From contig SVTC01000007.1 of assembly GCA_015063985.1 (NCBI GenBank), forward strand, positions 35,477 through 99,476: DNA of 64,000 nt, given 5' to 3'. The translations under genes were made by a program, and so were the position numbers. Every line of letters starts with the position of its first letter. Position 1 is the first letter of the stretch. The stretch comes from Oscillospiraceae bacterium (GTDB taxonomy: Bacteria > Bacillota > Clostridia > Oscillospirales > SIG627). Of the stretch, positions 27,309 through 60,906 are shown one piece after another. The notes beneath the pieces were generated by a model. The model ran no database searches and was not told the origin of the DNA. It was given only the letters and a program-made list of their open reading frames with translations.

Positions 27309-27591
27309 ATTAATATCCTCCTTTATTTAATTCTATTTTAAATCCCCAAAAACAGCTTTTATTACAAATGACCCATTGGACTATACCCTCTTTCCGGATT
27401 ACAGAAAATGTGCATTAATGAAGTTTATCACACTCTGTATTTTTATTATATTTAATTGCATCCACTTTGTCAAGGTTTTATATTGATATCAAGGTGATTT
27501 CGTATACTTCCACATTTTGTAATTGATGGAATTGTGCAGTTTTACTATAGATCTGTTTTAGTGGTAAGATGCGGTGTTTTTCAAGAGAAAT

Positions 27592-34029: not shown

Positions 34030-34106
34030 TTTACATAACATTGTTTACATTAGTATTATGTAAATCATTAAATTTACATAAGTTATAATATCTGTATTTA
34101 TGTAAA
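34030..34106. repeat. cluster of TTTACATAA / TTATGTAAA boxes
   Basis: TTTACATAA at 34030-38 and 34073-81, TTTACAT at 34044-50, and TTATGTAAA at 34056-64 and 34098-106. Confidence 0.8.
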
Positions 34107-34120
34107 CAATTTTCAAGAAT

Positions 34121-34506
34121 AAAGGAAGGCTTTTTAGCGTAGTGCCCTTAAGGACACTACGCGTCGATATAGATCCGCTTGCGCGGATCTTCGATATACG
34201 CTGACACGTTCGATATGATGTTTGCTACGCAAACACTCGATATGCTCACCGCGTGAGCGCGGATCTATATCATATCAAGCTTGAGTGTAGCGAAAGCATA
34301 TCGAATTTGCCGCAAGGCAAATATATCGAGCCGAGCGAAGCGACGGCATATCGACAAATAGCATCTGTGGACACAGATGCAGTGCTTGCAAAGAAAAGAG
34401 GACAGAGAGTGTAAAAACATTCTCTGTCCTCTTCCTGTCGGTGGGTGCTATTTCTATTGAATCTAAAACTATCCTTAAGAGTACGTCTCTTTAGAGTCTT
34501 CCTTTT
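34121..34506 (-). repeat. hairpin-ladder element, copy A (TIR-bounded; orientation given relative to copy B)
   Basis: AAAGGAAGGC (34121-30) pairs with GTCTTCCTTT (34496-505). Inside, TCGATAT occurs 4 times and then ATATCGA 3 times, interleaved with perfect hairpins without spare nucleotides. A terminator-like hairpin is at 34398-34431. Confidence 0.85.
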
Positions 34507-34562: not shown

Positions 34563-34734
34563 AACACCATCGAGCACTGTATTTGCGTGAACTATGTCGT
34601 CATTGAAGGTTTTTTGCCTACTTTTTTTCAAAGCTCACGTCCCTATCAGTACTAATATGACCTTCGAGCACTGTGTTTGTACTGACTTTACCGACATTGA
34701 AAGTTTTTTGCCTACTTTTTTTCAAAAAAGTAGG
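34563..34734 (-). repeat. stop-codon-abutting hairpin plus two tandem units of about 94 bp (locus A)
   Basis: The palindromic hairpin CCTAC T7 C A6 GTAGG (34711-34734) starts at the nucleotide after the TAA of the oxidoreductase gene. The unit core is GCAAAAAAC..TTCAATGTCG..AACACAGTGCTCGA. Confidence 0.85.
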
Positions 34735-35772
34735 TTATGCTTTGGGATATTTGATCTTAACGGGCATACCGGTCTTGGTGGACTCAACGGTAGCGGTGCA
34801 GACAGCCACGGTGCTTGCGCCCTCAAGACTGCTTACGGGGAGGGGAGTGTTGTTAACAAGGGCGTTGACAAAGGCATCGATTTCCGCGGTAATATTGTGG
34901 TTGTTGATCTCGATGGGTATCTCCTTGCCCTTGGTGAAGCTGCTTTTGCCGTTTTCCAGAGGACCGACGTCTTCAAAGAGCGTCATTGTGGGAGAGGTGT
35001 TGTCGCAGATTATGGTACCGTTGGTGCCGTAGAAAACACTTCTCATTGTGTAATCTCTCTTGCATCCGATGGAGGTGAACACCTTACCTGCAACGTTGTT
35101 GGGGAACTTGTAGATGGCAACTGCACAGTCGTCTGTGGGCCAGGTCGTGAGACACTTGTGGTTAGCAATGGCATATACCTCGCCGGGGTTGCCCGCGATC
35201 CATCTGAGAAGATCAACTGCGTGGCATCCGCCGCCGATAAAGCCGTGTCTTTCGGGTGTTACTCTCCAATCGTCCACACCTCTTGCCTTGGCATAGCTGT
35301 GAGCGTATTCGCTTTCAACAAAGAAAAGCTCGCCGATCTTGCCCTCCTCGATGAGCTTCTTTGCCTGCAAAAAGGCGGGGGTGCAACGGCATACCTGACC
35401 GATCATAAGTCTTCTGCCGGACTCCTTTTCGGCATCGATCATTCTCTGACACTGCTCCATATCAAGAGCCATAGGCTTTTCGCAAAGAACGTCCTTGCCG
35501 GCTCTGAGGAATGCTTCGGTCATTTCCAGATGGTACTGGTCGGGTGTAACGATAACCGCCGCATCAACCTTGGGATCGTTTACAAATTCTCTGTAATCGG
35601 TCACCGCCTTTTCAACGTCAGGGAAGCCCTCAAGCCTCTTTTTGAGAATGTCCTCGTGCTTGTCGCATATTCCGTAAAGCTTTGCGCCTTCCTTTGCAAC
35701 AACTCCGTCCATGTGACGTCTTGCCATATCACTGCATCCGATAACTACAATGTTTAAAACTTTATTTTCCAT
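34735..35772 (-). CDS. Gfo/Idh/MocA-family NAD(P)-dependent oxidoreductase
   Basis: N-terminal Rossmann motif (NIVVIGCSDMARRH) and the EKPM motif (CEKPMAL). 345 aa. Confidence 0.85.
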   Translation of the reverse strand: MENKVLNIVVIGCSDMARRHMDGVVAKEGAKLYGICDKHEDILKKRLEGFPDVEKAVTDYREFVNDPKVDAAVIVTPDQYHLEMTEAFLRAGKDVLCEKPMALDMEQCQRMIDAEKESGRRLMIGQVCRCTPAFLQAKKLIEEGKIGELFFVESEYAHSYAKARGVDDWRVTPERHGFIGGGCHAVDLLRWIAGNPGEVYAIANHKCLTTWPTDDCAVAIYKFPNNVAGKVFTSIGCKRDYTMRSVFYGTNGTIICDNTSPTMTLFEDVGPLENGKSSFTKGKEIPIEINNHNITAEIDAFVNALVNNTPLPVSSLEGASTVAVCTATVESTKTGMPVKIKYPKA

Positions 35773-36810: not shown

Positions 36811-37085
36811 TATGTAAACCAAAAGCTTTCGAGCACTGTGTTTGCATTGATGTGATCGACATTGAAAGTTTTTGCCTGCTTTTTTTCAAAACTCACGTCC
36901 CTATCAGCGCTAATATGACCTTCAAGCACTGTGTTTGCACTGACTTTACCGACGTTGAAGGTTTTTTGCCTGCTTTTTTCAAAACTTCCATTAAAGTTGG
37001 CACTGATATCGCCATCGAGCACTGTGTTTGTGCTGACTCTGTCGACATTGAAAGTTTTTTGCCTACTTTTTTTCAAAAAAGTAGG
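36811..37085 (-). repeat. stop-codon-abutting hairpin plus three 93-bp tandem units ending in GGTTTACATAA (locus C); open in frame with the upstream gene
   Basis: The hairpin at 37062-37085 starts right after TGA (37086-88). GCACTGTG recurs at 36833, 36926 and 37019, giving a 93-nt period. The minus-strand frame is open for 91 codons up to the TAA inside the TTTACATAA box. Confidence 0.85.
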
Positions 37086-49840: not shown

Positions 49841-50018
49841 CACACCTTTTTGAAAAAAGGTGTGCCAAAAACTTTTATTGTCGATAAAGTCAGCATAAAC
49901 AAAGCAATCGATGGTTTTCTCGGCCCGAAACCATACTTTCCTTTTTGAAAAAAGGTGTGCCAAATACCTTTATTGTCGATAAAGTCAGTGCACACGGTAC
50001 TCTATTCATTTATTTACA
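49841..50018 (+). repeat. stop-codon-abutting hairpin plus two tandem units of about 95 bp (locus D), variant hairpin sequence
   Basis: CACACC T5 G A6 GGTGTG (49841-49864) starts right after TAA (49838-40). The conserved core is CCAAAAACTTTTATTGTCGATAAAGTCAG, and the array ends near TTTACA at 50013-18. Confidence 0.8.
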
Positions 50019-59564: not shown

Positions 59565-60260
59565 ATGTACAACTCAAAGCTCAAAGCCCTCACCTTCAGC
59601 TTTGATGACGGCGTCACTCAGGATCAACGTCTTATCAAGCTATTGGACAAATATCACCTGCGCTCCACCTTCAACATAAATTCCGCAAGGCTGGATCAGG
59701 CCAAGATCCTCCTCGTAGGCGACGTGACGGTCAGCCACTGCAAGCCCCGTCCCTGCGAGATCAAGGCGATCTACCAAAACCACGAGGTGGCAGGCCACAC
59801 CCTCAGCCACCCCTGTCTGACCACCCGCAGTGACGACGAAATAGTCCGCGAGGTGGAGCAGGACCGTCTTGCTCTCTCCCAACTCTGCCAATACGAGGTG
59901 GTAGGCTTTGCCTATCCCGGAGGCTCCCAATACGTGGACGACAGAGTCATAAGCGCCGTAAGGACCCGCACCGGTGTTAAATACGCACGCAACGCCTGCA
60001 CCTCCGGCAGCTTCGATCCGCCCACCGATCTTTTCAACGTGATCCCCACCGCCTCCTTTCTTGACGGCAATATTTTGGAGCTTGCAAAAGAGTTTATCGC
60101 CATCTCTCCCCATTCCCCCAAGCTATTCTTCATCTACGGACACGCCTACGAGCCCGACGGCTACTCCGACGGCTGGGAAAGAGTGGAAAAACTCTTCTCT
60201 CTCATCTCGCACAAGGATGACGTCTTCTACGGCACCAACAAAGAATGCCTACTTTTTTGA
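59565..60260 (+). CDS. polysaccharide deacetylase (CE4 / NodB-homology domain)
   Basis: The LTFSFDDG and GHTLSHP motifs. The last 13 nt, including the TGA, lie inside the repeat hairpin at 60248-60271. Confidence 0.8.
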   Translation: MYNSKLKALTFSFDDGVTQDQRLIKLLDKYHLRSTFNINSARLDQAKILLVGDVTVSHCKPRPCEIKAIYQNHEVAGHTLSHPCLTTRSDDEIVREVEQDRLALSQLCQYEVVGFAYPGGSQYVDDRVISAVRTRTGVKYARNACTSGSFDPPTDLFNVIPTASFLDGNILELAKEFIAISPHSPKLFFIYGHAYEPDGYSDGWERVEKLFSLISHKDDVFYGTNKECLLF

Positions 60261-60506
60261 AAAAAAGTAGGCAAAAAACTTTTATTGTCGATAGACTCAG
60301 CACGAACACAGTGCTCGATGCTTTGCTTTTCGGGAACAACCCTTTTTAAAAGCAGGCAAAAAGCTTTTATTGTCGATGGAGTCGGCACGAACACAGTTCT
60401 CGATGCTTTGCTTTTCGGGAACAACCCTTTTTAAAAACAGGCAAAAAACTTTTATTGTCGATAGAGTCGGCACGAACACAGTGCTCAATGCTTTAACTTT
60501 ACATAA
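60248..60506 (+). repeat. hairpin plus three 85-bp tandem units ending in TTTACATAA (locus B)
   Basis: CCTAC T6 G A7 GTAGG is at 60248-60271. GGCAAAAA recurs at 60270, 60355 and 60440, giving an 85-nt period. TTTACATAA is at 60498-60506. Confidence 0.85.
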
Positions 60507-60545
60507 TTCGCATTTACAAATGTTATGTAGATCAAACAGAGCTAA

Positions 60546-60906
60546 AAAAGGAAGACCGACAAGAGGCACACTTCCTTACGGAGTGTGCCTCAATTTTCTT
60601 TTTATATAAAATTTGACACTTTCTGTTTGAAAGTGTCATAGTGGGTTACATACTTTGAAATATTACCTATCTCAAAGATAAAAATAATAAGTGATATTGT
60701 GAGACAGGTCTCACAGTGATATTTTTGATAAATCAAAAGTGATATTAAAACCTTGCGGTTTTAGTGATATTTTATTCGCCCCTAAACTCGCAAAGCGAAT
60801 AACACTCGGCTATAGCCGAATATAACTGCGAAGCAATACAACTCGCCTTTGGCGAATAAAACTGAGGCACACTTCCTTACGGAGTGTGCCTCAAGGTCTT
60901 CCTTTT
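60546..60906 (+). repeat. hairpin-ladder element, copy B (TIR-bounded)
   Basis: AAAAGGAAGACC (60546-57) pairs with GGTCTTCCTTTT (60895-906). An identical 31-nt hairpin unit occurs at 60563-93 and 60864-94. GTGATAT occurs 4 times and then ATAnnAC 4 times, interleaved with perfect hairpins. Confidence 0.85.

Follow-up and report, generated by a model that had tools for sequence, protein, structure and literature searches.

A probable MITE-like non-coding element with a MOBV-type oriT and a hairpin ladder in the loop of a shared transcription terminator of an Oscillospiraceae bacterium

In this study, we analyzed the intergenic region between a polysaccharide deacetylase gene and a GH28 gene in a stretch of 64,000 nucleotides (nt) of Oscillospiraceae bacterium DNA (contig SVTC01000007.1, positions 35,477 to 99,476), hereafter called the window; the source is an uncultured rumen bacterium of the Ruminococcaceae/Oscillospiraceae, represented by a metagenome-assembled genome. 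The two genes are convergent around an intrinsic terminator whose arms are split by a non-coding block, here named element B1, which contains an origin of transfer (oriT) and an array of small hairpins and short motifs that we call the ladder. Comparative data throughout this work are metagenome contigs, many of which were found for this species by exact-protein look-ups, and those of hybrid structure may be chimeras. One of them, L066, carries the same locus without the block. The features of the region are as follows, with coordinates of the window:

59565-60260, + strand: polysaccharide deacetylase gene (PF01522)
60546-60557: left arm of the host terminator, AAAAGGAAGACC, a perfect complement of 60895-60906; the arms are joined by a 5-nt loop in L066
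60560-60563: left copy of CAAG, the junction repeat and candidate target-site duplication of 3-4 bp; CAAG is present once in the empty allele
60563-60593, + strand: left 31-mer, with terminal hairpin hp1 (stem-loop 60563-60591; repeat scan, terminator scan, -21.6 kcal/mol)
60564-60891: inserted non-coding element B1, about 328 nt, missing from L066 and present as a second copy, B2
60613-60660, + strand: oriT of MOBV (Mob/Pre) type, based on plasmid matches, an invariant 20-mer and a pMV158-like layout
60615-60623 and 60629-60637, + strand: inverted repeat of the oriT, GACACTTTC and GAAAGTGTC, read from the sequence
directly after 60637, + strand: 8-nt spacer of the oriT, ATAGTGGG, read from the sequence
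between G60645 and T60646, + strand: predicted nick, from a layout as in pMV158
60690-60863: ladder of B1, from motif coordinates and folds
60864-60894, - strand: right 31-mer, with terminal hairpin hp2 (stem-loop 60864-60892; repeat scan, - strand fold of -23.8 kcal/mol)
60892-60895: right junction repeat CAAG, from the comparison of empty and filled alleles
60895-60906: right arm of the host terminator, GGTCTTCCTTTT, 4 nt from the GH28 stop codon
60911-62425, - strand: GH28 gene (PF00295)

A repeat scan confirmed two features that an earlier sequence-only reading of this DNA had described, namely a 31-nt direct repeat and complementary sequences just outside it. The 31-mer GAGGCACACTTCCTTACGGAGTGTGCCTCAA is present in exactly two direct copies (31/31 identical, E 1e-10 within the window), and the outer 12-mers are 100% complementary. 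Each 31-mer is also a near-palindrome consisting of a 12-bp stem, one bulged T and a TTAC loop, and hence the two copies form inverted repeats as well (38 nt, 60563-60600 and 60855-60892, 82% complementarity).

Evidence for an insertion came from L066 (SRR14289618), which carries a variant of the GH28 gene and is 98.8% identical to the window over 3.1 kb. Its sequence beyond the stop codon of GH28 is AAAAGGAAGACC-TTGTC-GGTCTTCCTTTTTT, followed by the same tail and 85-nt repeats as in the window; the empty site can also be written AAAAGGAAGACC-GACAAG-GTCTTCCTTTT, with neither an inner stem nor a copy of the 31-mer. This site is a simple terminator hairpin (12-bp stem, 5-nt loop) with U-runs on either strand and a folding energy of -17 to -19 kcal/mol. 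Compared with this allele, the window has a single extra block of 332 nt (60564-60895) that includes one CAAG, a tetranucleotide present once in the empty and twice in the filled state. The comparison thus points to a target-site duplication whose length, 3 or 4 bp, is ambiguous, and because of this junction repeat the limits of B1 are uncertain by 1 nt. Since the 332-nt block absent from L066 includes both 31-mers, they are part of the insert rather than a target duplication or an att core. The sequence-only reading had proposed that a module of about 300 bp was inserted in a bidirectional terminator hairpin and had suggested looking for the empty site in a related strain, and L066 bears out both. 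On the other hand, it had predicted an empty site of about 60 bp with an outer stem, an internal loop and an inner 12-bp stem, and a 31-nt duplication forming att-like repeats; L066 has no inner stem or 31-mer, the 31-mers are the terminal hairpins of the element itself, and the repeat at the junctions is only 3-4 bp (CAAG). The nearest GH28 homologues outside this species are only 66% identical and thus too distant for a comparison of terminators, so that the empty site had to come from a variant within the cluster (P0125). Pattern scans of public metagenome and genome contigs for the predicted empty site, the 85-nt repeat and the tail/arm junction yielded no match or chance matches only, in collections that lack even the known filled sites.

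Both ends of the element resemble intrinsic terminators. The + strand continues from hp1 into AATTTTCTTTTT; in the terminator scan, AATTTTCTTT comes after the hairpin at 60563-60591, and the T-run occupies 60594-60605. On the - strand, hp2 is followed by AGTTTTATT, and the fold calculation gives AGUUUU / AGUUUUAUU after it. Judged by sequence, a G+C-rich stem-loop with a U-run is a common property of the empty-site hairpin, hp1 and hp2. The left hairpin hp1 with its T-run looks like an inward-facing terminator for + strand transcripts, and hp2 on the - strand looks like an inward-facing terminator for the GH28 transcript. Copies of the element end in GAGGCACAC...GTGTGCCTC. Each end combines a strong hairpin with an inward T-run and could offer one replacement terminator to each incoming transcript, and with these the insertion would probably do little harm to either gene. 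The 29-nt hairpin was not found as a free-standing terminator among approximately 270 fetched loci, where it was present only at the ends of element copies, and no plasmid or phage sequence matched the element ends.

Additional copies were identified at other loci. First, copy B2 lies between a transketolase gene and a nitroreductase gene in L056, a contig reached via the transketolase look-up, and is identical to 60592-60892 at 298 of 301 positions. Its flanks, AAAAAAGCACCC and GGGTGCTTTTT, are the arms of another terminator and are accompanied by a TTTG repeat. The left hairpin of B2 is 69% identical to the right one in direct and 76% in inverted orientation (the latter a hand count from the alignment), with an inverted loop; as the end hairpins of B2 differ, the perfect 31-nt identity of the ends is peculiar to the window copy, and we would guess that it arose by homogenisation of two near-palindromic ends. 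Second, in four contigs (L011, L012, L015 and L067) hp2 abuts the loop of the terminator of an AMP-binding gene. This terminator, AAAAAGCACCC-loop-GGGTGCTTTTTT, is intact and free of any insert in four related metagenome-assembled genomes (MAGs) or contigs, whose AMP-binding proteins are 88-94% identical. Finally, a diverged ladder, B4, was found in L074. The dispersed copies are thus B1, B2 (L056), the junction in the AMP-binding gene's terminator (L011) and the diverged B4 (L074). Besides B1, the same population has at least two further junctions, both in terminator loops, which makes at least two or three copies in such loops.

Several contigs are 100% identical to the window up to 60892 and then run into different genes: the AMP-binding gene in L011, L012, L015 and L067, and the transketolase gene in L014/L057. 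Homology among B1, B2 and the L011-type contigs stops exactly at this position. In addition, the start of right-hand contigs precedes 60892 by exactly k nt, and left-hand contigs break at, or end k nt after, 60613-60642; these positions fit a repeat of about 280 nt with more than one copy per genome. Contigs of the L011 and L014 types are hybrids in which the left flank of one copy is joined to the right flank of another; such flank-joining contigs account for the variable right neighbours as well as for the contig breaks, and they could result either from recombination between copies or from assembly through the repeat. One rival explanation takes the second option to its end: the variable right neighbours (GH28, AMP-binding gene, transketolase) would all be assembly chimeras across the repeat, and only the copies B1, B2 and B3 would be real. 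A repeat of approximately 280-330 nt exceeds assembly k-mers, the contigs break exactly at its borders, and a single sample (ERZ27248370) yields both an L011-type contig and a contig with the ladder next to GH28. However, the join between the deacetylase and AMP-binding genes was seen in four samples (L011, L012, L015 and L067), and real strain differences do exist here, as indicated by contig L047 (sample 3300024270), which comes from the sample with the transketolase join and in which unrelated DNA replaces the strain-variable GH28 gene from 62403, 23 nt into the gene. We consider a purely artefactual origin of all these joins a serious possibility, albeit less probable than not.

Based on these observations, we consider it very probable that 60564-60891 is a small, non-coding, multi-copy element in the 5-nt loop of the shared terminator, of the kind known as MITEs (miniature transposable elements with inverted repeats), which are short transposons without a transposase gene. 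With about 328 nt it is of suitable size, and no open reading frame (ORF) of at least 60 amino acids was found within 60610-60880. Its terminal inverted repeats span 38 nt at 82% complementarity (76% for the left hairpin of B2 against the inverted right one), and it is multi-copy, as represented by B1, B2, the third junction and B4. The element encodes no protein, and the suggestion of non-autonomous mobility in the sequence-only reading is borne out in this respect; mobilisation would be provided in trans by some other enzyme. The accompanying statement that no recombinase is encoded in the window was checked in part, and we can add that tblastn with Mob/Pre relaxase and rolling-circle Rep queries gave no hit, either in the window or in the further loci from this organism (about 150 kb). 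Searches with the whole element gave no match among phages and only the oriT core among plasmids. That the event was an insertion rather than a precise excision is concluded from the second copy and from the orthologous terminators that are empty.

Several points weigh against this interpretation. The searches revealed neither an autonomous partner that shares the ends of the element nor any transposase, relaxase or Rep, and MITE is a structural description only. L066 could in principle represent precise excision rather than the ancestral state, in which case the moving unit would still be the same. The junction repeat is 3 or 4 bp long and differs in sequence between copies, and that of B2 was deduced without an empty site. 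B4 has neither the oriT nor the left hairpin and ladder A (see below) has no MOBV oriT, which makes the element modular, and the oriT may be a passenger. The hybrid contigs of the L011 and L014 types could be chimeras across the repeat instead of real rearrangements.

The left part of the element contains the oriT, whose layout (an inverted repeat, then 8 nt, then a G/T dinucleotide) is that of the pMV158 oriT. It matches plasmids over 32-36 nt at 97-100% identity (E 8e-7 to 3e-6), including Kurthia plasmids and IncHI2 plasmids of Enterobacteriaceae. The match in pD610-HI2 precedes a Mob/Pre gene by 62 nt; the unit there has further genes for TnpV, TnpW and a DUF4368 protein, and we take it to be Tn4451-like. 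A Subdoligranulum variabile record labelled as a plasmid has the same oriT core, with the same GACACTTT/AAAGTGTC inverted repeat, at a distance of approximately 90 nt upstream of a PF01076 ORF. All five contexts share the 20-mer GAAAGTGTCATAGTGGGTTA without any change, and in two of them it is situated about 60-90 nt upstream of PF01076 Mob_Pre genes (E 2.6e-30 and 4.6e-35). According to the promoter scan, a promoter-like site overlaps the oriT (TTGACA, 18 nt, TG-extended CATAGT). In pMV158, IR1 precedes the TGTG/TTATAC nick by 8 nt and the mob promoters overlap the oriT (PMC5863519). A class of integrated sequences that consist of an oriT only and have no relaxase in cis has been described as iOriT (PMC11389934). 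By homology, an oriT without a relaxase gene would place the element among such integrated oriT-only hitchers, and a Mob/Pre relaxase acting in trans could nick it at 60645/60646. The Mob/Pre oriT core was also observed without a downstream mob gene in L064:1480-1530 (Subdoligranulum variabile OY725868.1), and hence orphan copies of this oriT are present in other Oscillospiraceae as well. Ladder A together with its first hairpin gave no significant match among plasmids, and a second type of oriT in ladder A is a guess.

The right part of the element is occupied by the ladder. The motif AGTGATATT is located at 60690, 60715, 60738 and 60763 (23-25-nt spacing), each time followed by a different small palindrome, and then come four small palindromes, each followed by AATAnnACT (60798, 60819, 60835 and 60855), an approximate reverse complement of AGTGATATT. 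On either strand, the ladder thereby presents four hairpin-plus-motif units that point to its centre, with hp2 as the outermost rung. In the whole window, GTGATATT has only four occurrences, all in this ladder. Most spacers are hairpins beyond shuffled controls, and the fold z-scores of this ladder range from -7 to -13. Across B1, B2, B4 and a variant in L018, the rung hairpins are 95-100% paired, with three compensatory pairs, and the pairing of motifs with inverted motifs in B is invariant at 75-94%. All 11 differences of the L018 variant over 3.2 kb fall within 60657-60824, none of them in a rung-hairpin stem and one in the weak hairpin before the first motif; the two single-nucleotide polymorphisms of ladder A are both in loops. 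Such patterns of variation indicate that the structure is conserved, but not the sequence of the stems, and that the 7-9-nt motif is conserved within each type.

The same 4+4 architecture was found in four independent ladders (A, A2, B1/B2 and B4), in which motifs are conserved and hairpins are replaced or compensated. The three ladders outside B1/B2 are:

34137-34431, - strand: ladder A, with four TCGATAT, four ATATCGA and hairpin spacers
L179/L264, a phage-like contig: ladder A2, with the same 4+4 arrangement as A and other hairpins
L074: ladder B4, with the same 4+4 arrangement as B, 89% identical to 60663-60845

Ladder A has, in this order, a terminal hairpin (34431-34398), a hairpin named h0, the 4+4 motifs and a different terminal hairpin (34162-34137), the two terminal hairpins being unrelated to each other. 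Its minimum free energy (MFE) fold is a nested stack of four-way junctions (z -11 as RNA, -8.4 as DNA). An HUH rolling-circle Rep gene (PF23343; phrog_3584, E 1e-47) ends with its stop codon 3 nt before ladder A2, which in turn lies about 500 nt upstream of terS/terL. Ladder B4 comes after the gene of a phage head-tail adaptor; it has an entirely different rung 2 (TTGCC/GGCAA in place of TTTGAT/ATCAAA) and another terminal hairpin. Furthermore, two IMG/VR contigs from the same sample series (L112:2040-2110 and L138) contain three copies of AGTGATATT that are spaced by 21-23 nt and have non-palindromic spacers; they lie beside two 34-nt direct repeats, in non-coding phage DNA with a CI-like repressor gene on one side and terS/terL on the other.

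Some further observations concern these ladders and structures like them. The outer flanks of ladder A, AAAAAGGAAGAC (34507-34496) and GCCTTCCTTT (34130-34121), resemble the terminator arms split by ladder B, with an extra 62 nt on one side that include an orphan AGCACCC arm. About 250-600 nt past the right end of the window, L046:9385-9745 is a hairpin-dense intergenic element (z -6.2) in which, as in ladder A, AGTGCTTG comes after the hairpin GCATYTG...CARATGC; the two hairpins differ by a compensatory C>T / G>A change, and this layout could be the nick site of another HUH enzyme. A structured non-coding region (L011:8100-8400 and, as reverse complement, L049:1-400) is common to this species and a relative with a 94%-identical AMP-binding protein; its two-hairpin module (GGCTCCCC...GGGGAGC and TGTCAGC...GCTGACTGAGGGG), for which no Rfam match was obtained, also precedes ladder A2 (L179:5040-5125). 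Three viral contigs (L177:10990-11200, L254:2100-2460 and L270:3150-3420) have long arrays of the palindrome TATCGATA with a period of about 14 nt, which look like iteron or partition sites built on the TCGATA core of ladder A.

With regard to function, the ladder would act as folded single-stranded DNA (ssDNA), and we see roughly an even chance that it serves as a recognition or origin-like array for an HUH-type enzyme, either a rolling-circle Rep or a mobilising enzyme. The motifs TTGATAT, TCGATAT and GTGATAT resemble the nick site of Rep_1 proteins, CTTGATA (PMC10378824). Three points count against this role: only one ladder lies beside a Rep gene, in a single phage that was seen twice, which is little to base an origin on; the position upstream of terS would suit a packaging site equally well; and the pairing between motifs and inverted motifs is imperfect in B (75-94% of cells paired). 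A number of other candidates were considered for the ladder. Theta-replicon iterons were dropped, with ladder spacers that are all palindromic and all different, and so were integron attC sites (no RYYYAAC/GTTRRRY) and omega-protein heptads (WATCACW fits ladder B only), as well as a CsrB-like protein sponge RNA and type III antitoxin repeats. Subterminal binding sites of the Tn7/Mu kind are possible in that they fit the motif, but they leave the hairpins unexplained.

These phage contexts also bear on a different origin of the element, as the remnant or satellite of a phage or rolling-circle replicon that integrated at hairpins by an HUH enzyme (Rep or relaxase) without any transposase, the ladder being the origin or packaging site of the replicon and the oriT its transfer origin. 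Consistent with this scenario, ladder A2 of a phage-like contig is bordered by an HUH Rep gene and by terS/terL, B4 comes after a head-tail adaptor gene, three copies of AGTGATATT are situated upstream of terS, the ladder motif is similar to the Rep_1 nick site, the - strand of B1 is bounded by CTTG...CTTG, and all three insertion points are hairpin loops, substrates that HUH enzymes favour. However, B2 is bounded by CAAA/TTTG and not by CTTG, which excludes a fixed target tetranucleotide, and a short junction repeat with inverted-repeat ends is more typical of cut-and-paste or copy-paste transposases. Moreover, no Rep or Mob was found in the approximately 150 kb of DNA of this organism, and a neighbouring Rep gene was seen for one ladder only. 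Thus, this origin appears unlikely to us. Even more speculative, and in our opinion rather improbable, is the following idea: a protein-less 'double hitcher' of about 330 nt that joins a transfer origin to a new ssDNA origin or recognition array, is served by the Rep or packaging machinery of HUH-encoding helpers, and has colonised terminator loops by means of ends that restore termination. If this were true, the chromosomal copies would make neighbouring genes mobilisable and would act as recombination seams.

Two remaining alternatives to a MITE-like insertion are both very improbable. One is the original form of the sequence-only reading, an ancestral two-tier terminator in which a module of about 270 bp lies beside the inner hairpin and is bordered by a 31-nt duplication or att core: the 31-mers are indeed an exact direct repeat including the asymmetric loop and bulge, and deleting one copy with the interval yields a foldable two-tier hairpin whose outer arms pair in the MFE fold, but the empty allele has no inner hairpin, the AMP-binding terminator lacks one in four relatives and yet has hp2 in its loop in this species, the end hairpins of B2 are only 69-76% alike with inverted loops, those of ladder A are unrelated, and the 31-mer hairpin never occurs alone. 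The other, to which we give equally little credit, is a resident, non-mobile small-RNA gene between two copies of one terminator, with L066 as a deletion strain: the promoter-like site upstream of the ladder (TTGACA, 18 nt, TG-CATAGT) and hp2 downstream of it, the very stable fold of the module (z -12.7) and the variation in loops with stems kept, as in structured RNAs, would agree with such a gene, whereas the 99%-identical copy in another split terminator at an unrelated locus, the third junction, and the need for a deletion to restore exactly a perfect terminator hairpin argue against it; in addition, the promoter-like site belongs to the oriT core, which is conserved, much as mob promoters overlap the oriT in pMV158, a comparable promoter is missing from ladder A, and the module has no Rfam match (no covariance model reached its gathering score in the window, L011, L046 or L049). 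Transcription of an inserted element is compatible with the MITE-like interpretation.

Other repeats and structures were noticed in the surroundings. Tandem repeats of 85-93 nt directly follow stop codons at 60263-60517 (+), 49844-49988 (+), 36822-37085 (-) and 34568-34744 (-). Each of these arrays starts with a hairpin NNNNNN-TTTTTTGAAAAAAA-NNNNNN whose stem varies by locus, and the number of units is polymorphic (L019 is one unit short). A ladder element follows two of the four arrays, and a conserved hairpin, TACATAA...TTATGTA, closes the 85-nt arrays just before the terminator arm; in related MAGs, a similar hairpin and then CCAAAAACTTT come after the AMP-binding terminator. Clusters of the motifs TTACATAA / TTATGTAA are located at 34030-34110, 60519-60547 and 34540-34510. 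The segment 50255-50520 is possibly a small RNA gene: it has a near-consensus promoter (TTGACT, 17 nt, TAAAAT), then about 200 nt of non-coding DNA rich in hairpins, and then a terminator; this region had no match in Rfam. A 227-nt stretch (27357-27583) is 95.6% identical to L046:7-233, about 10 kb past the right end of the window, and probably belongs to paralogous GFO_IDH_MocA genes.

The MITE-like interpretation has several implications. First, a mobile element can inhabit an intrinsic terminator at apparently little cost by bringing a replacement terminator at each end. Second, the element copies would be the exact breakpoints of gene-order differences between otherwise identical strains, and they explain the breaks that metagenome contigs of this organism show in these intergenic regions. 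Third, several sites of the chromosome have an orphan Mob/Pre oriT, and flanking carbohydrate-utilisation genes could be mobilised by conjugation if a relaxase were to act on this oriT in trans. Finally, the hairpin ladder is a well-defined and testable cis element that is found both in host chromosomes and in phage-like contigs, in one case with a rolling-circle Rep gene as its neighbour.

The element shares features with several known systems. It resembles bacterial MITEs and other small repeats (Correia/NEMIS, RUP, BOX and ERIC) in being non-coding and about 330 bp long, with inverted-repeat ends, a short junction repeat, several near-identical intergenic copies, and presence/absence polymorphism between strains. 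It differs from known MITEs in that each end is a full hairpin with a T-run, forming what looks like an inward-facing terminator, and in that its interior consists of an oriT and a 4+4 hairpin-motif ladder instead of a deleted transposase gene; we know of no parent insertion sequence. Palindrome-associated transposable elements (PATEs) of the IS200/IS605 type have subterminal hairpins, no inverted-repeat ends or target duplication, and insert 3' of a fixed tetra- or pentanucleotide. The present element does have hairpin ends, but it also has a junction repeat, which differs between copies (CAAG and TTTG). IS1397 and ISKpn1 are insertion sequences that target the loops of palindromes in repetitive extragenic palindromic (REP) units; insertion in a palindrome loop is common to both cases, whereas the targets here are intrinsic terminators and not REP units. 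Like att-flanked integrative elements, the insert is bounded by identical direct repeats, but these are absent from the empty site, and there is no shared attB/attP core.

With iOriT/pOriT sequences and the MOBV oriTs of pMV158 and the Tn4451 family, the element has in common a 20-28-nt core identical to DNA directly upstream of PF01076 genes and, as in the former, no relaxase in cis. However, the oriT is here inside a 330-bp transposable repeat with several chromosomal copies, not on a plasmid or a gene-bearing island, and the ladder occupies the position of the mob gene. The sso (single-strand origins) of rolling-circle plasmids and, in Ff phages, the intergenic region on which gene II protein acts are likewise hairpin arrays in which structure prevails over sequence and short motifs recur; the likeness extends to one ladder beside a Rep gene of the G2P/ORF2 HUH family and to a motif that resembles a Rep nick site. 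In contrast, the ladder has no sequence similarity to known sso elements, and we know of no sso or origin with a strict 4+4 dyad of hairpin-plus-9-mer units and predicted stacked four-way junctions. As far as our literature searches showed, the combination of terminator-loop targeting, self-terminating hairpin ends, an orphan oriT and a 4+4 ladder shared with phage-like contigs has not been described before.

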